Shown: positions 876 to 37,998, numbered from the stretch's first letter. The stretch: DNA of 64,000 bases from Microcoleus sp. (GCA_042408215.1 JAYFMW010000030.1:320001-384000), one strand, 5' to 3'. Notes: generated by a model from the letters alone, not told the origin. A program made the numbers and translations.

Positions 876-1583
876 TTGGAGACATTTTCTATGAAGCACC
901 AGCCTTTATTTGATAAAATTTCCAATTTTTCAAATTCTTTAGAATTTATCAAAAAACACTTTTTTAGAGTCCCATTTTTGGTCGCTTTCAACACTCTGAC
1001 TATACTAATGTTGGGTGGACTGAGCATATATGCCAAACTCAAAAACCAGGGAGATGGAGTTGAACGCCTGTTTAGCGATCCGTTTAATTTCTGGTTCCCT
1101 TACGAAGGCATTTTAACAGGATTTTCCGAAGTCCTGTGGTGCGTCGCCGTCACAACTTGTGCATTTACTTTCGGAGTGCTTCGCCAAAACAAATCCCGCA
1201 TTCGAGCCGAGAGCTTCTTATTTTTTAGTGCTTTATTGCTGGGAGTGTTTTTTCTGGATGACAGATTTCGGATGACTTTGATTCTTTCTGGTTTGGGGGT
1301 ATCTAAGAAATTAATTTATTTATGTTATGCGAGTGGAATCATCGTTTACGGAGTTAAGTTTTGGAGGTTCATCATCACCACTTCTTACTTGCCATTAATC
1401 GCAGCATTTATTTTATTTGCAATTTCCAGATTTGAAGATATATTTCCCGCCCAAAGTCAAGGAGTCCACGCAATGTTAGAAGATGGAACTAAGTTATTAG
1501 CTCTGCTCAATTTAGCGCTGTATTTTTGGCACGTATGTCATCAAGAAATTTGGCGCAATTTGCAGCAGAGTGAAGAGAATTAA
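876..1583 (+). CDS. Multi-pass membrane protein of unknown function
   Basis: 235-aa ORF with about 6-7 hydrophobic segments; start could be ATG at 891. Confidence 0.7.
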   Translation: METFSMKHQPLFDKISNFSNSLEFIKKHFFRVPFLVAFNTLTILMLGGLSIYAKLKNQGDGVERLFSDPFNFWFPYEGILTGFSEVLWCVAVTTCAFTFGVLRQNKSRIRAESFLFFSALLLGVFFLDDRFRMTLILSGLGVSKKLIYLCYASGIIVYGVKFWRFIITTSYLPLIAAFILFAISRFEDIFPAQSQGVHAMLEDGTKLLALLNLALYFWHVCHQEIWRNLQQSEEN

Positions 1584-1603
1584 TCCCAGCTAATTTTCCA
1601 CGA

Positions 1604-1717
1604 TCTCAATTCCGGTTGCACCGTCAGGTGATTGTTGAGGGTTGACAGTTGACAGTTAACAGTTAACAGTTAACTGTTAACTCGAATTTACTATTCCGAT
1701 GAAGAGAGGATTTTATC
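1604..1717. mobile_element. Degenerate copy of TATC..GATA MITE family
   Basis: Left end TCTCAATTCCGGTTGCACCG nearly identical to the copy at 44144; decayed right end TTCCGATG...TTTTATC; flanks CGA/TGA. Confidence 0.6.
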
Positions 1718-1729
1718 TGACATGATCGG

Positions 1730-1870
1730 CGCTCGACTTCTTGCCGCCTTTTCCAGCCTGAAGATTGATCTGCGAGGTTGTTTCTGCCTTCTGCTTGAGT
1801 TGAAAGTTGCAAAAAAAGAATTGGCTGGTGTTAGGCTTGGATGAAGTCGATCGACTTTTTCAATATCCTA
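1730..1870 (+). pseudogene. Fragment of an AAA-like (AAA_35-type) ATPase domain gene
   Basis: Peptide WLVLGLDEVDRLFQYP matches the Walker-B region of cyanobacterial AAA-like proteins; it runs straight into a heptamer array. Confidence 0.5.
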
Positions 1871-1882
1871 AAAACAAAATGC

Positions 1883-1989
1883 CCAATTACCAATTACCAA
1901 TTACCAATTACCAATTACCAATTACCAATTACCAATTACCAATTACCAATTACCAATTACCAATTACCAATTACCAATTACCAATTACC
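1883..1989. repeat. STRR-type heptamer array (CCAATTA)n, about 15 copies
   Basis: Seen directly. Confidence 0.95.
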
Positions 1990-2214
1990 CATGCCCCATC
2001 CCGGAGCAACGCTAGAGCCCAATTCTCATCTCCTGTTGTTTAGATTTTTTTTAAGCTGTCAAATTCCGCGCCCGTCGAGCTGGAAAGCCAAGGAGTTTGA
2101 CACCACGTCTCAATCGGCTGAGTCAGGCGATTTGAGATTGTCGATCGAAATCGGAAAGCACCCGCCAGAATGTCCAAAATTATTGATATTTTGCATTTAG
2201 GTGCTGTCTACATC

Positions 2215-2243
2215 TTGACAAAATACCCCCCAAGTGATAAAAT
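2215..2243 (+). promoter_or_regulatory. Sigma70-type promoter
   Basis: TTGACA-N17-TAAAAT with extended -10 TG, about 105 nt upstream of ORF 2349. Confidence 0.6.
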
Positions 2244-2348
2244 AAGTAAAACTTTTGATGAGGACGTAGACTGTCCCACCAAAAAACTAGCGCTTCTGAA
2301 GTTAAAAAACAGTTAAAAACAAAATATTGACTCTTGTAGATACCAACC

Positions 2349-2543
2349 ATGCAGACTCAAACTTCCCCATTTCTCACCGAACAAATAGTTAGTCGCATAT
2401 TTGCGACAGGCGAACTGAGCCGTGCTGACAGACAAAAGATTCAGTCAGCACTCTTAAATGATTCCATCGACGAAAATGAATTGAGTCTAATAGAAAAAAT
2501 CATGGAGGGAGTGGTCAAGGGAATCCTCGATGTAATGTATTAA
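2349..2543 (+). CDS. Small hypothetical protein (64 aa)
   Basis: ATG ORF with an upstream promoter and a downstream hairpin; resembles cyanobacterial small helical proteins. Confidence 0.65.
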   Translation: MQTQTSPFLTEQIVSRIFATGELSRADRQKIQSALLNDSIDENELSLIEKIMEGVVKGILDVMY

Positions 2544-2551
2544 TAATAGCC

Positions 2552-2584
2552 AGATCCCCGACTTCTTAAAGAAGTCGGGGATCT
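2552..2584. terminator. Near-perfect palindrome between convergent genes (bidirectional terminator or short dispersed repeat)
   Basis: AGATCCCCGACTTCTT-A-AAGAAGTCGGGGATCT. Confidence 0.6.
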
Positions 2585-2660
2585 AACATTTTCCTACTGA
2601 TTACTGACTACTGACTACTGACTTCTGCTGTAATATCTCAGACAATCACTACCTAAACTT

Positions 2661-2939
2661 TCAAAAATCCTCATCTGGGCCCTCATCTGAAGTCTCATCA
2701 AGGCGCACAAGTTCAGAAGGGGGTCGATCGCTACTCCAAGCCCACCACACGCAACCGCACTGACAGTGATAAAATTCCTGCCACTTGCGACGGTTAGACT
2801 CAGTGTATACTGGCGATCGCCGATTAATCCAGACACCCAGCGCATCCGTGCAGGTGGCACCGCACTTGGGACAGCAAAACTCAGTAGCGTGAACCGCCGC
2901 CGCAGCCCATTCGGGAGGATGTGGAGCAAAAGCTTCCAT
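2661..2939 (-). CDS. Small Cys-rich (Zn-ribbon-like) conserved cyanobacterial protein
   Basis: CCPKC and CQCG motifs, WINRRSPV, WQEFYHC. Confidence 0.75.
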   Translation of the reverse strand: MEAFAPHPPEWAAAAVHATEFCCPKCGATCTDALGVWINRRSPVYTESNRRKWQEFYHCQCGCVWWAWSSDRPPSELVRLDETSDEGPDEDF

Positions 2940-3300
2940 GTGTTAGAGATTCTAATTAAACTGTTGGTAGTTAACTGTTTGAGGCTTTCAAGACTATTGC
3001 CAACAGTTAAGCTGACAGAAAAGCAAATCTTGAAGTTGAAATCAATTATAATATCACTGGTCTATTTTAAACCTTTACCAGTACCCGATCGCCACATTTA
3101 CACAGGCATTGCACAAATGTTACAGCAAATCAAGGGTGGCCATTGCTTGACGCAAGCTCGCGATCGCATAACTCTGCTGTTAAGTGCATAATCCCGATTA
3201 CAGTTAATTTTTTTGACATTTACTCTCAAATCAAGAGTATAACTGATTTGATACAAGGCATCGGCCAACACTCTTAATTGTTATTTCAAGGATCGGGCGC

Positions 3301-4899
3301 ATGGGTATCTACAATTTTATCTCGTTTCTGGGCATATTTGGCTTGTGCGCGATCGCCTGGATTTTTTCAGAAAACCGACAGTCCAAGTATATTCCCTGGC
3401 GCGTCATCATCTGGGGTATTGGCCTGCAATTAGTCTTGGGATTTTTCATATTCCTGTTTCCCCCAACTCGCATTGCTTTAGAGGGGTTTACTAGCTTACT
3501 AGACGGCGTATTCACCGCTGCTGACGCTGGAGCAAGATTTGTATTCGGCAAAAACATTGTACCAATACCCGGTCAAGACCCGCCAGTTAATTTAGGATAT
3601 ATTTTCGCCTTTCGAGCTTTGCCAACAGTGGTCTTTTTTTCGGGATTAATGGCTTTGCTTTACAACATCGGCGTCATTCAAATTGTTACCGAAGTTTTCG
3701 CCAAAATCTTTTATCTGACAATGCGTTTGAGCGGTGCAGAAGCTCTCAGCGGTGCTGCCAATATTTTCGTAGGAATAGAAGCAGCAATTGTCGTCAAGCC
3801 TTATTTGGCAGACATGACTCGTTCTGAACTTTGTGCAATTCTCTCTTGCTGTTTTGGGACGGCTGCTTCTTCAACTTTAGCAATTTACGTCAGTTTCCTC
3901 AAGCCAGTTTTTCCAAATATTTTAGGGCATTTAGTTTCAGCTTCAATTATTGCGATTCCGGCTTGCTTTGTCCTCTCTAAAATCTTAGTTCCCGAAACAG
4001 GCGTGCCGCTGACAATGGGCGGCATTCCCAAGGAAGAACGAAAGCCTCAAGGCCACGAGTTTATCGGTGAAGAAATTACCGAAAATGACGGCAATAACCA
4101 TAAACAAGAGACAGTTGGTGGAGAACCAATCGAACGAGTTAGCCCTTTGGATGCAGCAATCATCGGCGCCTTAGACGGGGTAAAGATGGCAGTGGCGATC
4201 GCAGCGGTTTTGATTTTGATTTTAGGCTTGGTTTCCTTGGTAAATCAAGCTTTTGGAGCCTTAGCTAGCTTGCAGTCTTCAGAGAATATACTGTTGCAGC
4301 CGATCGGCACAATCTTCAGTTTTGTCACCCTACAAAACATTCAAGGAGCCTTATTTTACCCCCTGACTTTATTAACCGGAGTTCCCCTTGAAGATTCTTG
4401 GATAGCTTCAGTAATTATCGGACGGCGACTATTAGAAACAGCGATTCCCCCTTACCAAAGTTTAGCAGAAGCGGCGGCGAAAGGACTGGTGAGTTCTCGC
4501 ACAGTATTAATTGTCAGTTACGCCCTTTCCGGCTTCGCGCACCTCGCCTCCGTCGGCATATTTGTCGGCGGCACAATCGCCCTAATTCCTTCTCGCCGGA
4601 AAGACATTTCCGAACTTGGTTGGAAAGCATTATTTGTCGGCACCTTAGCCACAATGATGATTGCTTGTATTGCCGGCTTATTTGACACTGGAGACCCCAG
4701 CATTTTAGGCGCTAAAACAGCCCCCGCTGCCCCGCTAACAGCACCAGTTTCCCCAAAACCGCCGGCACCCCAAGGCGTTAATTCAACGCCGTCAGTTGCT
4801 CCAGCAATTGCCAGTCCGAAGCCCTCCCCTAATGGTGAAAAAGCGAGTCCAAAAGCTAATAGTAAATCTCCCTCTCCAGAATCCAAGAAAAGCCCTTAA
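3301..4899 (+). CDS. Concentrative nucleoside transporter (NupC/CNT family) with Pro-rich C-tail
   Basis: Motifs FAFRALPTVVFFS, SGAEALSGAANIFVG, YALSGFAHLASVGI. Confidence 0.9.
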   Translation: MGIYNFISFLGIFGLCAIAWIFSENRQSKYIPWRVIIWGIGLQLVLGFFIFLFPPTRIALEGFTSLLDGVFTAADAGARFVFGKNIVPIPGQDPPVNLGYIFAFRALPTVVFFSGLMALLYNIGVIQIVTEVFAKIFYLTMRLSGAEALSGAANIFVGIEAAIVVKPYLADMTRSELCAILSCCFGTAASSTLAIYVSFLKPVFPNILGHLVSASIIAIPACFVLSKILVPETGVPLTMGGIPKEERKPQGHEFIGEEITENDGNNHKQETVGGEPIERVSPLDAAIIGALDGVKMAVAIAAVLILILGLVSLVNQAFGALASLQSSENILLQPIGTIFSFVTLQNIQGALFYPLTLLTGVPLEDSWIASVIIGRRLLETAIPPYQSLAEAAAKGLVSSRTVLIVSYALSGFAHLASVGIFVGGTIALIPSRRKDISELGWKALFVGTLATMMIACIAGLFDTGDPSILGAKTAPAAPLTAPVSPKPPAPQGVNSTPSVAPAIASPKPSPNGEKASPKANSKSPSPESKKSP

Positions 4900-31493: not shown

Positions 31494-33050
31494 ACTGATC
31501 GTCCTCTCGCTTGATGTTGTTTTACCAATCCCTGGATAGCACCCCTTCCTAACTTTAGCAGCAAGCGATCGCACTACCTGACTCAGGAGCGTCCAGAAAG
31601 CACTGCCGGAGATCGATCGCCTCAACTTCAGGTTTACAGTATCAATGCCACTTGATCAAGAGTAGCAAAACTGGGGGGACTGCTACAGTTCACAAAAAAC
31701 CTGGCAATGCTTGACATTACCGGACTTTTTGTGGCTTTTTTCGTACAGGATTGACCCGCACAGGTGAAACTGCAAACACCTCTAAACGGTTGCTGCACCC
31801 CTCAAAGGGTGAGTTTCCGCTTACTTTTCTAATTATATTTAATGCTGCATTCACACTACTCATTGATCCGAGTCCCACGCACTGACCGAAACAACCCGCG
31901 AAAAACTCTCTTACCCTGATAATACTCTTGCTTACCGACAGGCTCTCAATCCCAAAAACTGCACTTACTTGTATAAGATTCTTCTGTAAGTGTTACCTTG
32001 ATACCCACTAACTCAGCTTTGTAGGTCATCATTTCTATCAGCTTGGCATGAGGCATTCAACAAAAGGTCTGATTCGTTTTTTTCCCTAACTCTAAATTTT
32101 GTTTCCACCCCACATTGTTTCCAATTACTAACTGCCCTATTTCCTCGTCCACCAACCCCTTGACAATCCAACTTCTGGTTGGATGAAGGTAGTTGTCTAC
32201 TCGCTTGTTTCGCTTCCAGGTGATTTGCTGAATTGGGCGCGTGGTATATTTCCCTTTTTCAAGTTGCGACTGTAAAAATGCTCGGCGCTTATTGAAACCT
32301 TGATTGATTGATTTGAGATGCTTTCCGTCATAAAGAGTTGGCATAAATGTTGGCTTTTTCGCTGCAAAACCCACGAGGCGTTCGAAGCATAAATCTATAC
32401 CTGCTATGAGTTTGGGGTTTAAATCCACAATGGTAACAGGCTTTTCATAAACCACCTCAACCATGTAGGTAGCTGTTGCAGGAACTCTCCTTACCTCTCT
32501 GACATAAGAGTGCTTTTGTAGCAATTATCATCTCAGTTTGAGCTCGATGAAGTCGCCCGTTATTTTTCTGTTTCCCCCTTTGTCCTATCGATTGGTTATC
32601 ATAAATTAACAAGTTACGTCCGCAGGCTTTATGTTTGTATTTGGGGATGTAGGGGCGGGCTAAAAATAGATGGATATCCCGGTAATAAGCCCCCCTCGCC
32701 TTTGGCCAAGCTGACCAATCGTGAATAACTTGTTTGAGAACTTGATTGCTAACTTTTGCTGGTAAGGATTTATAGTCGTCTGTGGGTTTGACGATCGCAT
32801 ATAACTGTTTTAGACTTAAAGCAAATCCCACCCTCGACCCAAGCCCAAAAAAAACACACCAAAAAAGTGTTGCCTCACCCAATAGTTACCATGCTTGTAG
32901 AGATTTTTTGACAGGAATGATCGTTCATCGAACCGTTGAAAAAACTGATGCTGTCTGTCTATGTAATCTGCTATACAAATACTAGACAAGCCTAGACATT
33001 TGCTTCTTACTTCATCGGGAGCATGGGAGCAGTTATCCCTCAGTAAGCTT

Positions 33051-36000
33051 TCACGGTTTAGCCAACCGCGATACGCCAGTTGCTCCACTTGGGGAAACCC
33101 CAAGACCGCACTGGCTTAAATTTATCGCTGCATTCAAATCTCTATCCATCCCATGACCGCAACTTCCACAGTTGTAAGTTCTTTCTTTCAATGGCATATC
33201 TTGAATATGTCCGCAATTTGAACAGGTTTTGCTTGACGGGAACCATCGGTCGGCAACAATCACTTCACAGCCAAACTTTTTAGCCTTGTATTCTAGCTGA
33301 CGCTTGAATTCATGAAATCCACAGTCAGCTATTACTTGCGCTAACTTGTGATTCTTTAGCATCCCAGAAGTATTTAAATCTTCTACTACTATCGTTGCGT
33401 GGTTTTTGCAGAAGTAAGTAGTGATTTGATGAAGAGTATTCTTTCTGAGGTTTGCTATTTTGGCATGATGTTTTGCTAGCCTTTGTTTGGCCTTAAATCT
33501 CTGGCTGGAGCCTTTCACTTTTCTTGCAAGAACTCTGGATAGTCTCTTGAGTTTTGCCAGGTGCACTTTATAGTGTTTTGGGTTCGGAAATACTACGCCA
33601 GTTGAAAGCGTAGCCAACTCTTTCACCCCCAAGTCCACTCCCACAACTTCATGACTCTTGATGGTAGGTTCATGCTCAAGCGAATAAGCAAAAGCAATAA
33701 ACCAACTGTCGGCGGTACGCGAAATAGTGATTGACTTGCAAGTCGTGTGAGGCAATCCTTCGTAAGTTTTTACCCAGCCGATTGTTGGTAGCTTGATAGA
33801 TGTACCGCCGACAGGTATTGGTTTACCGCCTGCGTCAATTGTGAAAGAGTCGTGATGCCCCTTCTTTTTGAACCTGGGATGTCCACCTTTCTTCGAGAAG
33901 AAACGAGAGAAAGAATCTCCAAGATTGTCAAAGGCGTATTGAGTTATCTTTTGGCAGATTCCGGCTTCCTTGAGCCAGGCAAACTCAGGTTTTACGTGAT
34001 TGTTGAAGAATTTCTTGAGTAGGTATTTGTTGGGCTTTAGTTAGAGTCGATTAGGGAGTTGCCCCCCTAACCTCTCCTTCAGAACGGAACGTGATACTTT
34101 CGCATCATTCCGCTCCTCAATAATCCCACCTTTGTTACAGGTACGATTCAAGACTAACTATCGGGTTTTGACATCTTCTTTAGAATGTATTGACCCGTCT
34201 GTTGCTGTCTTTGCGTCGTGGCAGTGTCTATGCAAAAGTTGTAGGTTATCGTAGGTATCTTTTCCACCTAACGATGTTGGTTTAATATGGTCAACTTCTA
34301 CAATGTCTGTACTTGTGAAATACAAACCACAGTGAGTACAAATACCCTTTTGTCGTTTGATTAATGATGCAACTCTGTTAGGAGTTTCTGGGTACTCGCC
34401 TCTTCGCTTGCTCCAGTAAATCCAGTCTCCATTGTACGGACTAGCCTCACCTTTGACCTTTGTATGCCTTACGATTGGCGTATTTGTATGAGTGAGTAGT
34501 TCTAATCCATCTTCGGTACTGAAGCACCAATTGCGGTCACCTACTGTTCTCCAGTATTTGTCCTTATTGATGCTACCTTTTCCCCTCGATTTAGCCCAGG
34601 CTCTTAATTTTTGCCATGTCAGCATATCTACCCTTGAATAGGTTTGCTTACTAACTTGTGTCGAGTAATATTTCGACCATCCTCTGATGATTGGATTTAA
34701 CTTGCTGATTAAAGCAGCTTGGGAGGTGGTTTTATGAGTGTCTATTACTTCGGCAATCTTGGCTAAATGAGTCTTAACCTTGGCTTTTGATGGTGTGATT
34801 AGTGTTGTAAAACCAAGTTGTATCCCTTGTGAGCTGTTGGCACTTCTGTAATTACCTACTTTGTGCTGCTGTACATGGAATCCAAGGAACTCAAACCCTA
34901 CGTTACCGTCAATCTTAATGAGGGTGTGGGTTAGTTTTGTTTTATTTGGTTTTAATTCTCGTCCCATATCACGTAGCCACTCAGCGATTATCTCTTGACA
35001 TTTCTTGACTACGTTTAAATCTTTGTGGATTATCACGAAATCGTCGGCGTAGCGGATTAGGCTTAAGGCTATACGGTTCTCCCGTTTTTTTCCTTTTAGT
35101 GTTTCCGCGTATTGTTTTATTCTTTCTTCCATACCATGTAGGGCGATATTTGCAAGTAGGGGTGATATTACCCCGCCTTGTGGTGTACCCTCATTAGTAG
35201 GGAATAAAGAATCCTGGTCACAATACCCTGCTTTGAGCCATGATTTGATTTGACGGTTTAAAGTGGGGTATGTTTTTATCTTTGAGAGTAACGCTTTGTG
35301 GTCTATGCGGTCGAAGCATTTAGCAATATCAGCATCAAGCACATATTTGGCTTTTTTATTAATACTGTCGAATATTGCTTGAATCGCATCGTGGCAGGAA
35401 CGTCCTGGTCTAAAACCGTAACTGTTAGGCTCAAATTTTGCCTCCCATTCTGGTTCTAACGCTAGTTTCACTAACGCTTGCAGTGCGCGGTCGTTTATCG
35501 TTGGGATGCCTAATGGTCTAGTTTCAGTAGTACCAGGTTTAGGAATATTAACCCTACGAGTGGGTTTTACTTTACCTGTTAACTTTAACTTGCCTATCAG
35601 GTTGATACGTTGCTTTGGGGTCAATGCTTTTACACCATCCACTCCCGCCGTATTCTTTCCTTGGTTATCTTGTGTCACCCTACGTACCGCGATACACTTT
35701 GCAGACCAAGACCTAATCAGGGTTTTCTGAAGTTTGCGAACTGCTTTAACATCACCACGTTCACTCGCTTGGAATATTCGCTTTTGCAACTTAAAAGTCA
35801 CCCTTTCTAGCTTGCGCCAGTTGATGTCTTTCCACTCCACCGTCTGATTGTTCAGCGTTTTAGATATGTTCATTGCTACTTGTTCAACTCCTTTGGAATT
35901 ACCGAGTATCTGTTAGCATATCCCCCGCATTACCGAGGGCATTCCGCTTTTGATACCATCCCGCTCTCTTACACCGTTCGTTAGCTACTTACTGGTTATC

Positions 36001-36620
36001 GACCTTACCAGAGGTTTAAGAGAGTTACTTCGTTCCGATTACACATTGATTGAGTCTTTAGCGTGATGTTTTCCACCGGGTTTATTGGGCGGTGCTTATA
36101 AGTCGAATGGACATTCGCTTATGCCCTATCCTTGCCTTTTGGCTTGGTGTTATCAAGTTTTACCGCATTTTCAACGGATTTATCCTTGGTCAGCCATTTC
36201 ACCATTTATCATTACGATGGTTCAAACACATCATTGCTTTCGCTACGCATGGACTCTTGCTCGATAGTTACTAGATTTGGCTTCTAGTAGTTCTACCTTT
36301 TAACCCCGCTTTAGTTAATTGGTTGCTACCCAATTAACTAGGGGTTATGCTTTCACCTCTGCACTTGAGGGGAAGGACTTACCGCACGGCGGTTCACCTC
36401 CAAATGTAATCAGTTATCACCAGTCTTATCAACTAGGCTAACCGTCCCATAAGCGTTTCAGCTTATTTTAGGTTAAACGAATCGCACATCCATCTTTATA
36501 AAGGTAACACCAAGTAGCCAGTCCCCAGTTATAAGTAAACCTCGCTATGCCAGCGTGTTTACTCATGACCGTTGATTGACTCTTGTTTAGCTTTAACTTT
36601 GTTTTGATGGACAAAAGCAT
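33051..36620 (-). CDS. tnpB: IS607 TnpB RNA-guided nuclease; two exons (36620-36488, 34039-33051), 373 aa after splicing
   Basis: MLLSIKTKLKL...YKDG-L-KPNKYLLKK continuous frame; RuvC GVDLG, VVEDL, DRDLNAA; Zn finger CSNC/CGSC. Confidence 0.9.
34040..36487 (-). ncRNA. Group II intron (probably IIB, chloroplast-like class), 2448 nt
   Basis: 5' GTGCG at 36487; domain V GAGCGGAATGATGCGAAAGTATCACGTTCCGTTC; domain VI ending ...CTCTAAC at 34040; candidate EBS1 GUCCAU (36112-36107) pairs with exon end AUGGAU. Confidence 0.92.
34158..35873 (-). CDS. ltrA: Group II intron reverse transcriptase/maturase with HNH endonuclease domain
   Basis: RPLGIP, YGFRPGRS, GTPQGGVISPLLANI, YADD, FLGF, LNPIIRGW, EVDHI...NLQLLHRHCH. 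Confidence 0.95.
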   Translation of the reverse strand: MNISKTLNNQTVEWKDINWRKLERVTFKLQKRIFQASERGDVKAVRKLQKTLIRSWSAKCIAVRRVTQDNQGKNTAGVDGVKALTPKQRINLIGKLKLTGKVKPTRRVNIPKPGTTETRPLGIPTINDRALQALVKLALEPEWEAKFEPNSYGFRPGRSCHDAIQAIFDSINKKAKYVLDADIAKCFDRIDHKALLSKIKTYPTLNRQIKSWLKAGYCDQDSLFPTNEGTPQGGVISPLLANIALHGMEERIKQYAETLKGKKRENRIALSLIRYADDFVIIHKDLNVVKKCQEIIAEWLRDMGRELKPNKTKLTHTLIKIDGNVGFEFLGFHVQQHKVGNYRSANSSQGIQLGFTTLITPSKAKVKTHLAKIAEVIDTHKTTSQAALISKLNPIIRGWSKYYSTQVSKQTYSRVDMLTWQKLRAWAKSRGKGSINKDKYWRTVGDRNWCFSTEDGLELLTHTNTPIVRHTKVKGEASPYNGDWIYWSKRRGEYPETPNRVASLIKRQKGICTHCGLYFTSTDIVEVDHIKPTSLGGKDTYDNLQLLHRHCHDAKTATDGSIHSKEDVKTR

Positions 36621-36629
36621 TGTTCGACC

Positions 36630-37280
36630 TCAACACTGGATTTCTTGATTGCTCAATTCTGACAGGTCTTGTACGGGTTTGTCAATAGCCTTTTTCAGAT
36701 TCTCCTTGATTTCCTTGGAGTAATTTCGCCAACCGTACAAACGGCCAGAAAAACAGTGGATTATCGCCATCAAGTCTTCTACTAATTCATGTTGCGGAGA
36801 CAGTGATTCTTGATTGGCGACTACAATTTCACATCCCACTGATATCGCAAGCTCCTGAATGAATTCAAAGGCAAATCTGCACATCCTATCCTTGTGTGCA
36901 ATTACAATTGTTGATATTTCGCCTTTGAGCATTGACAGCATGATTGCTAGAAACTTTTTTCTCTTAAAGTTTAACCCACCACCAATTTCCGATACCCAGT
37001 CATCAACCGTCAGTCCTCTACCTAGGCAAAAAGCTTCCATAGCAAGTAACTGATTTTTCAGTTCTGGCTTCTGCCCGTTAGATGAAACTCGACAGTAAAC
37101 GATTGTCTTTCGGTTGGCTTCTATGGGTTTCAGACCGTTGGCTATCAAGAGATCGTCTTCTGTGTAGAAGCGATGGCCTGACAGGGTGCGCTTGGCTGGC
37201 AACTTCCCCGCGACATCCCAGCGCTGGAGGGTCTTTACTGATAGCCCAAGCTTTTTTGCGAATTCGTGTGGTTTGAACAT
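36630..37280 (-). CDS. tnpA: IS607 transposase (MerR-like HTH + serine recombinase)
   Basis: SVKTLQRWD, YCRVSS, EIGGGLNFKRK, HKDRMCRF, ELVEDL. Confidence 0.93.
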   Translation of the reverse strand: MFKPHEFAKKLGLSVKTLQRWDVAGKLPAKRTLSGHRFYTEDDLLIANGLKPIEANRKTIVYCRVSSNGQKPELKNQLLAMEAFCLGRGLTVDDWVSEIGGGLNFKRKKFLAIMLSMLKGEISTIVIAHKDRMCRFAFEFIQELAISVGCEIVVANQESLSPQHELVEDLMAIIHCFSGRLYGWRNYSKEIKENLKKAIDKPVQDLSELSNQEIQC

Positions 37281-37998
37281 GGTACACGTAAGAGGTTTGT
37301 CGGCAAGTGTACCACTTTGTTTATTTATTCACTAGCTAGGTACTAGCTCTTTCAACAACCATCATATTTTATGGAGGTAGAAAAGTTTATGGGCTTGTGT
37401 CCGGTAATGTGCGGTAAAATCCAGGGATTATCTGATCTAGTTTAGCACCCCAAAGCCGAAACAAGTCAACCGAAGGTAGAAGGCTGGCTTTCGGCTACAG
37501 GCGCTGCTCACCCAAGGGCGATCGCTCCTTGCACTTCAGCAGGCGCTCCCCCATGCCTTGAGTTGCAGGTCGTCTGGTCTCCGTCAATTCAACCCAAGCT
37601 CTGCTGGCCACAGGTAAAGTAGGGATTTGAACCGCGCTACCTTAGAATAGGGGAATGCCAAGCGCCTGCGCGTGAGTAGCAGGCGAGCAAAAAAGTATTC
37701 ACGCACCAAAACCGGACGGCTAATCAATGCTGATGGGAATGGTTGTTTGAATATTGGTCACAAGTTAACGACACTGCGGTGGGCGGTTTTGTAGTTAACG
37801 AGCGGTTTAACAGCAGCCGATAAAAGCGTACAAACATTAAATTTAGGCGAGTTCGATATTTGTCTAGATTTTTTGGCACTATGCCAACAATCAGGCAGAT
37901 CTGCGACACTTATTACAGTACAAAGCCTTGATTGTCGGTTGACGCGCACCTAGTCTTTTTCAACTCAGACACGGTTTTAAGGAGAACACTTTAGCTGC

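Follow-up and report, generated by a model that had tools for sequence, protein, structure and literature searches.

Architecture of the nested tnpB locus

A 64,000-nucleotide stretch of Microcoleus sp. (GCA_042408215.1 JAYFMW010000030.1:320001-384000, here called the window), which corresponds to positions 320001-384000 of contig C30 in a 7.36-Mb genome of 30 contigs, carries a three-level nest in which a group II intron lies inside the tnpB gene of an IS607 insertion sequence and this element lies inside an outer tnpB gene. All features of the nest are on the minus strand (Table 1). A preliminary description of the window had proposed this architecture and its junction coordinates were confirmed exactly, while the range that it gave, 31711..37413, stood for the nest as such and proved slightly narrow for the outer element, which by homology extends over about 31684-37449.

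Table 1. Features of the nest in window coordinates (RT, reverse transcriptase; EBS and IBS, exon- and intron-binding sites; aa, amino acids)
Feature	Coordinates	Strand	Details and basis
Outer element, left part	37347..37449	-	start codon 37360-37362; IS607 cuts codon 6 after its first base; homology to C11 paralogue
Whole IS607, 4,379 bp (1,931 bp without intron)	32968..37346	-	left end CTAGTACCTAGCTAG..., right end ...TTGTATAGCAG
tnpA serine recombinase, 216 aa	36630..37280	-	RVSS at residues 64-67; Pfam MerR (HTH), Resolvase
tnpB exon 1, 44 codons + 1 nt	36488..36620	-	Pfam HTH_OrfB_IS605, E 1.1e-10
Intron target in tnpB exon 1	36488..36502	-	IBS2 TTTATAA 36496-36502, one-base spacer, IBS1 GATGGAT 36488-36494
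Group II intron, 2,448 bp	34040..36487	-	phase 1 of IS607 tnpB codon 45; GTGCG/AC ends, Rfam, colinear homologues
EBS2, UGAUAAA	36205..36211	-	pairs with IBS2, 6/7, one A.G mismatch at exon position -10
EBS1, GUCCAUU	36106..36112	-	7 pairs with IBS1 GAUGGAU; covariation across family
Intron-encoded protein, 571 aa, RT (YADD)-maturase (X)-HNH	34158..35873	-	Pfam RVT_N, RVT_1, GIIM, HNH
Intron domains V/VI	34040..34117	-	Rfam RF00029 Intron_gpII, 57.8 bits against gathering score 40, model 1-77 of 77
tnpB exon 2, 2 nt + 328 codons + stop	33051..34039	-	Pfam OrfB_IS605, Cas12f1-like_TNB; NCBIfam guided_TnpB 260 bits, cutoff 100
Predicted guide-RNA (omegaRNA) scaffold, IS607 right end	32968..33200	-	conserved structured 3' end; analogy with PMC10690162
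Private in-frame 45-nt hairpin insertion	33073..33117	-	tnpB 3' end / predicted guide-RNA region; absent from 4 paralogues
Outer element, right part, pseudogene	31684..32967	-	Pfam OrfB_IS605 on fragment; frameshifts and stops against C11

Joining the two tnpB exons (36620-36488 and 34039-33051) produced a stop-free frame of 1,122 nt and 373 aa, and the D, E and D residues of its RuvC site aligned with those of ISDra2 TnpB (8bf8), which bears out the proposal that excision of 34040-36487 yields a TnpB with all three acidic residues. Intron-less homologues were colinear at the predicted junction throughout: three of three paralogues from the same genome (contigs C10, C13 and C20; 76-85% identical) are contiguous exactly at the exon junction, and the matches to exon 1 and exon 2 are directly adjacent in five of the five other genomes of the genus that were checked. 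Exon 1 occurs free of the intron in other genomes at 90-92% identity.

The intron begins with GTGCG (36487-36483) and ends in CTAAC (AC at 34041-34040), in agreement with the boundary consensus GUGYG...AY. The match to RF00029 terminates exactly at the 3' splice site, 34040, that had been proposed beforehand, and its alignment shows an AGC triad within the stem of domain V as well as a bulged GA of domain VI, where the branch-point A would be 34047. Both the intron-encoded protein and the IS607 recombinase were found intact as previously claimed, each being a full-length open reading frame (ORF) that passed its Pfam and NCBIfam models (group II RT/maturase TIGR04416, 333.7 bits with a cutoff of 300; IS607 transposase equivalog NF033518, 197 bits with a cutoff of 110, covering model positions 2-186 of 187). 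The closest solved structure to the intron-encoded protein was 6me0 chain C (E 3e-106), with the RT-maturase parts aligned over residues 8-564 and the C-terminal HNH domain of the window protein as the difference between the two. Entry 6me0, labelled 'Maturase reverse transcriptase' in the search, represents together with 6mec and 8fli the ribonucleoprotein of the Thermosynechococcus T.el4h group IIB intron, and by this nearest solved RT the window intron may belong to the IIB (chloroplast-like) subclass.

The host element has the features of the IS607 family, namely a serine TnpA with a MerR-like helix-turn-helix domain, the same core dinucleotide at both junctions and, once the intron is removed, a downstream tnpB with the D-E-D residues and a zinc finger. 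AG precedes the left end and closes the right end, which fits the core dinucleotide of a serine recombinase, and the empty site shows no target duplication. The two terminal sequences are common to four to five paralogues and 28 relatives. Upstream of the left end, GAG was present in 28 of 28 copies at unrelated sites in approximately 20 genomes (two of the 30 loci were dropped as the match fell short of the first bases), and position -4 was never C. No full-length tnpA of this IS607 subfamily other than the window gene exists in the genome, and the paralogues are without most of theirs. Most relatives of this subfamily have likewise lost tnpA, with a full-length gene at only 5 of the 30 left-end loci; the C13 paralogue (C13:79464-81040, L038) lacks tnpA and is frameshifted.

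Removal of 32968-37346 restored the start of the outer tnpB (MVVER-(D/H)YIDRQ...) with an AG core at both junctions, as had been claimed, and the paralogue at C11:59151-60518, which is 88-89% identical, is uninterrupted at this site. It reads GAAAGA-C-ATTACAT where the window reads GAAAGAG-IS607-ATTACAT, and contains an intact outer-type tnpB of 408 aa (C11:59235-60461; L037:236-1462). The earlier identification of the outer gene as a tnpB split by IS607 was correct, but it had gone unseen that this gene is a dead pseudogene, bearing besides the IS607 insertion three frameshifts relative to C11 (an insertion of 14 nt near 32854 and single-nucleotide insertions near 32509 and 31860) and two in-frame stops (C11 codons 304 and 341). 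Only domain fragments are left of the OrfB_IS605 and TNB domains that the C11 paralogue possesses in an intact ORF.

The conserved right end of IS607 is presumably a guide-RNA scaffold by analogy with characterized elements, as its last ~130 nt are conserved and form stems with compensatory changes in five copies. An Rfam search of 31500-37600 at E up to 1 returned nothing beyond the intron domains V/VI, with neither RAGATH-18 nor a group I intron. The 20-nt guide predicted from the flank of the right end has a single other match in the genome, the intact outer-type tnpB on C11. The private 45-nt insertion in this region is a perfect hairpin and lengthens TnpB by 15 residues close to its C-terminus. 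With a single occurrence in the genome it was rejected as a dispersed repeat, and variants without it occur in two public sequencing runs (X1 and X17).

Target code and distribution of the intron family

The assignment of the two exon-binding sites was based on covariation across the intron family. The EBS1 loop tracks the 5' exon end of each copy, with at least six contiguous pairs in 14 of 21 distinct copies as compared with 23 of 420 mismatched pairings, and the EBS2 loop tracks exon positions -9 to -15 (at least six pairs in 14/23 own pairings versus 140/506 controls). The closest intron paralogue, on contig C17 (84% identical), is located at another site, and two short loops distinguish it from the window copy. 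A pairing of a candidate EBS1, GUCCAU, with AUGGAU at the exon end had been suggested previously and this pairing stands; however, GTCCAT occurs twice in the intron and only 36106-36112 (GUCCAUU) behaves as EBS1, whereas the second copy (36249-36254) was rejected because it is kept in relatives with other exons. The site of the C13 paralogue (C13:79983-80027, TTTATCA-A-GATGGAT/T) would pair with EBS2 and EBS1 at all 7+7 positions, which makes it a better target than the occupied one, and contains no intron.

Members of this intron family were matched in 124 of 144 family genomes, and relatives 84-91% identical to the window intron were found at other sites. Over 1,019 columns in which 26 other full-length copies do not vary, the window intron shows 14 private changes, while 24 of the 26 copies show 0-16; with its full-length ORF and a number of private changes within the family range, the window intron does not look degenerate. 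The family introns in relatives came to 40 distinct copies after the 5'-truncated L085 had been dropped and an intron shared by L082 and L083 had been counted a single time; 4 of the 40 abut a same-strand tnpB and 36 do not. Other hosts include ribonucleotide reductase small-subunit genes (three cases), 6-phosphogluconolactonase-type, GST and GroEL-type genes and another intron. A looser test for tnpB near family introns gave 6 of 21 loci in comparison to 11% of random 3.6-kb windows of the genome, a weak enrichment. There is some excess of tnpB among the hosts, which may reflect a preference or the harmlessness of such insertions, in a family that does not depend on tnpB.

Four tnpB-associated family introns lie at the 3' end of the gene, where the guide RNA is encoded. 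The C17 paralogue (C17:621100-626578, L002; intron at 1501-3979) is inserted 10 codons before the stop of a third tnpB type, in the presumed guide-RNA region, and its RT has YPDD in place of YADD. Another genome (L094) has a related intron in a tnpB of this third type, at a position 24 nt downstream of the C17 site, and the introns at L084 and L071 are likewise at tnpB 3' ends. A degraded nest on contig C6 (C6:775816-781131, L003) comprises a tnpB pseudogene of the outer type and another tnpB fragment, together with an intron (73% identical) that is truncated at its 5' end and whose RT breaks off after 327 aa.

The preliminary description had envisaged that the intron could spread by retrohoming, by IS607 transposition or by TnpB-driven homing, and none of these routes found support. 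Among the matches listed from the 144 family genomes (193 weaker matches fall outside these), the exon-intron junction was spanned only in the window. An exact 30-mer over the exon 1-intron junction had no hit in a search of genome contigs, and a junction 19-mer was recovered from eight metagenome contigs, all eight of which were unrelated (no blastn match to the nest). In addition to the unoccupied C13 target, the C11 gene matched by the predicted guide is empty and presents GAC, compared with GAG at 28 of 28 IS607 insertion sites. The composite therefore gives no sign of having spread, as judged from these sequence comparisons.

Splicing and the origin of the nest

The unspliced tnpB frame ends after 50 codons, so TnpB production needs splicing, and it follows from the sequence that full-length TnpB is obtainable only from spliced mRNA. 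From the intact ribozyme core and maturase we infer that the intron still splices. Public-run data were available as contigs, and the exact 34039-36488 joint was present in contigs of two runs, both RNA libraries (X16 and X17), with one to two differences from the window; this amounts to two of three RNA libraries, the joint being absent from X1 and from X11, the latter covering the intron only. The X17 joint contig has a tnpA deletion that the window lacks, which indicates a different DNA copy devoid of both intron and tnpA, and the intron-less joint contigs are probably near-identical empty sites in DNA and not spliced RNA. The claim that TnpB production depends on splicing was thus sustained for the reading frame, while splicing itself is not demonstrated by contigs that are likelier to derive from intron-less DNA. 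The near identity of these copies (at least 99%, in two runs) indicates that the intron was inserted recently. Contigs of X1 and X16 (window 36234-36487) join the intron 3' end to intron position 1 or 254, and one jumps back by 253 nt; these joints, absent from the window, may represent intron variants in tandem or nested arrangement, circular RNAs or artefacts of assembly.

The nest is very likely the outcome of three independent selfish elements stacked by successive insertions, without joint function. The oldest layer would be an IS200/IS605-type element with tnpB only, since decayed to a pseudogene. An IS607 with tnpA, tnpB and a right-end guide RNA would have entered codon 6 of this gene through serine recombination at the AG core of a GAG motif, and a group II intron from a large target-diversifying family would have inserted in sense orientation at codon 45 of the IS607 tnpB, with EBS1 (7 pairs) and EBS2 (6/7) directing its reverse splicing and target-primed reverse transcription. 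Spliced and unspliced transcripts alike could give rise to the guide RNA at the 3' end. Such a nest would reflect the share of tnpB in the genome together with the tolerance of insertions into dispensable mobile genes. Two queries alone yielded 255 tblastn hits in approximately 220 tnpB-like loci, amounting to 198 kb or 2.7% of the DNA, and with this proportion nesting of this kind is expected.

Four observations weigh against this account of independent stacking. All three full-length family introns of the genome (window, C17 and C6) touch a tnpB, which is above the expectation from 2.7% coverage and indicates some preference or a survivorship bias, so that pure chance is too simple an explanation. 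The A.G mismatch between EBS2 and IBS2 at exon position -10 means that the window site is not a perfect homing site. X17 record 28, which has the exact exon joint, is also without tnpA, so that its joint may be DNA-derived. Lastly, intron entry may have come before or after the landing of IS607 at this locus.

Alternatively, the nest may be an inert wreck, in which the intron is not spliced or not expressed, tnpB has been killed and IS607 survives through tnpA or not at all; we consider this possible but rather doubtful. It would account for the run contigs not having demonstrated splicing, for six private changes at non-coding ribozyme positions where the other 26 copies all agree, for the private 45-nt insertion in the guide-RNA region and for the perfect C13 target having remained unoccupied, and the sister nests of the genome are indeed degraded (the broken RT on C6, YPDD on C17). 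Against it, the RT-maturase-HNH ORF is full-length with YADD, domains V/VI score far over the Rfam threshold, private changes are no more numerous than is usual for the family, the spliced 373-aa frame is open with all catalytic residues, and the intron-less copies of at least 99% identity in two runs point to a recent insertion.

The preliminary description had favoured a cooperating composite, in which splicing gates TnpB and the intron rides on IS607 transposition and TnpB-guided homing. The two inner elements are intact and no other copy of this IS607 subfamily in the genome bears a tnpA, the predicted guide matches the intact outer-type tnpB on C11, and family introns recur in tnpB genes, as they also do in the cases presented in PMC4810608. 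We nevertheless regard such cooperation as improbable, because no second copy came to light among the listed matches, by the 30-mer in genome contigs or by the 19-mer in metagenomes, because the C11 site has GAC and is empty, and because the 36 of 40 copies in relatives that do not abut tnpB show that the family is not dependent on TnpB elements. An assembly artefact of mis-joined repeats, for which the repeat-rich genome of 30 contigs and the odd joints inside the intron could be cited, is of negligible likelihood, as all four junctions of the nest are bridged by public-run contigs with 0-7 differences (X1 records 3 and 7 for the 3' and 5' splice sites, with 0 differences and with 7 over 800 nt, respectively; X17 records 26 and 29 for the right and left ends of IS607), X1 possibly being the genome's own sample and hence not independent support, and as reading frames and EBS/IBS pairing fit exactly.

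Relation to described systems

In summary, stacking of independent elements very likely accounts for the nest, and its components have counterparts among described systems. Kapitonov, Makarova and Koonin (2016; PMC4810608) reported group II introns with RT-HNH proteins in IS605 transposons of Anabaena and Nostoc, and describe identical 2,511-bp introns within Coleofasciculus TnpB ORFs (Suppl. Fig. S9) and further introns at different positions of TnpB genes. As in those cases, among them PCC 7107, the window has a sense-oriented RT-GIIM-HNH intron of ~2.5 kb in a tnpB frame with intron-less transposon copies alongside, and the published alignment picks up again near residue 51 of TnpB, not far from codon 45 of the window gene. 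Group II introns inside cyanobacterial tnpB genes are therefore already published and the nest is of an ordinary, already described kind. In that work the host is an IS605 element with a tyrosine transposase, whereas the window host is an IS607 with a serine recombinase that is nested in a further tnpB pseudogene, and only one window-type copy carries the intron. No IS607-hosted case appeared among the titles and abstracts listed for papers that mention group II introns with TnpB or with IS607, and this detail may be unreported, which would be a difference of host element and not of kind.

A second comparison is with the IStron of C. botulinum (Zedaveinyte et al., PMC10690162), which shares with the window a serine TnpA with a catalytic Ser near residue 67, the order tnpA then tnpB, the lack of terminal repeats and target duplication, the same core dinucleotide at both junctions and a guide RNA at the right end (predicted in the window). 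The motif beside the left end of both elements is a target motif that probably doubles as the target-adjacent motif (TAM) of TnpB. The IStron uses a GG core within TGGG, which is also the TnpB TAM, in contrast to AG within GAG in the window. Identity of the window element as an IStron was rejected, as its intron is a group II retroelement in its own right, located within tnpB, and the Rfam search of 31500-37600 gave no group I ribozyme, whose splice sites in an IStron coincide with the ends of the insertion sequence.

The product of exon 2 resembles ISDra2 TnpB (8bf8, 8ex9 and 8exa; residues 18-312, E 9e-48), with matching D/E/D residues and zinc-finger cysteines. It differs from ISDra2 TnpB in being encoded by an intron-split, IS607-associated gene and in the 15-aa private insertion near the C-terminus.

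The family of the window intron comprises many copies with different EBS1 and EBS2 at different sites, which resembles a mode of spread by EBS divergence that Mohr et al. reportedly described for such introns in 2010.

The locus offers a clean and fully mapped natural case of a gene for an RNA-guided nuclease that can be expressed only via group II intron splicing. With intact inner layers and intron-less controls in the same genome, it is a convenient test case for whether introns silence or gate TnpB, for retargeting within the intron family and for the published idea that HNH domains entered RuvC nucleases via such insertions. A bolder proposal, to which we give little credence, is that this intron family has a preference for TnpB elements as hosts, their 3' guide-RNA region included, and makes the output of TnpB or guide RNA conditional on maturase-assisted splicing. 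If true, this would be a group II counterpart of the conflict between group I intron and guide RNA in IStrons, gating here the only autonomous copy of the IS607 subfamily.

Several further arrangements of family introns were recorded in the genomes surveyed. Two family introns occupy a single 6-phosphogluconolactonase-type gene (L082/L083; G126:C1:2353600-2363000), and the introns in ribonucleotide reductase small-subunit genes come from three genomes (L076, L090 and L102). One family intron adjoins a GroEL-type frame (L108), and another is situated directly downstream of the RT-HNH ORF of a different intron, a possible twintron (L101). The Microcoleus genome also contains five elements of ~790-850 nt that are 98-100% identical to one another (C30:136577, C20:318719, C6:739068, C6:417823 and C6:102982; L004-L008), all of which follow ATATCAA(T/G)T(C)(C/T/G)GGT and start with a group II intron 5' end that matches nucleotides 1-469 of the window intron at 71% identity. 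These are probably ORF-less mini-introns, judging by their sequence, and one of them lies ~160 nt upstream of another tnpB.

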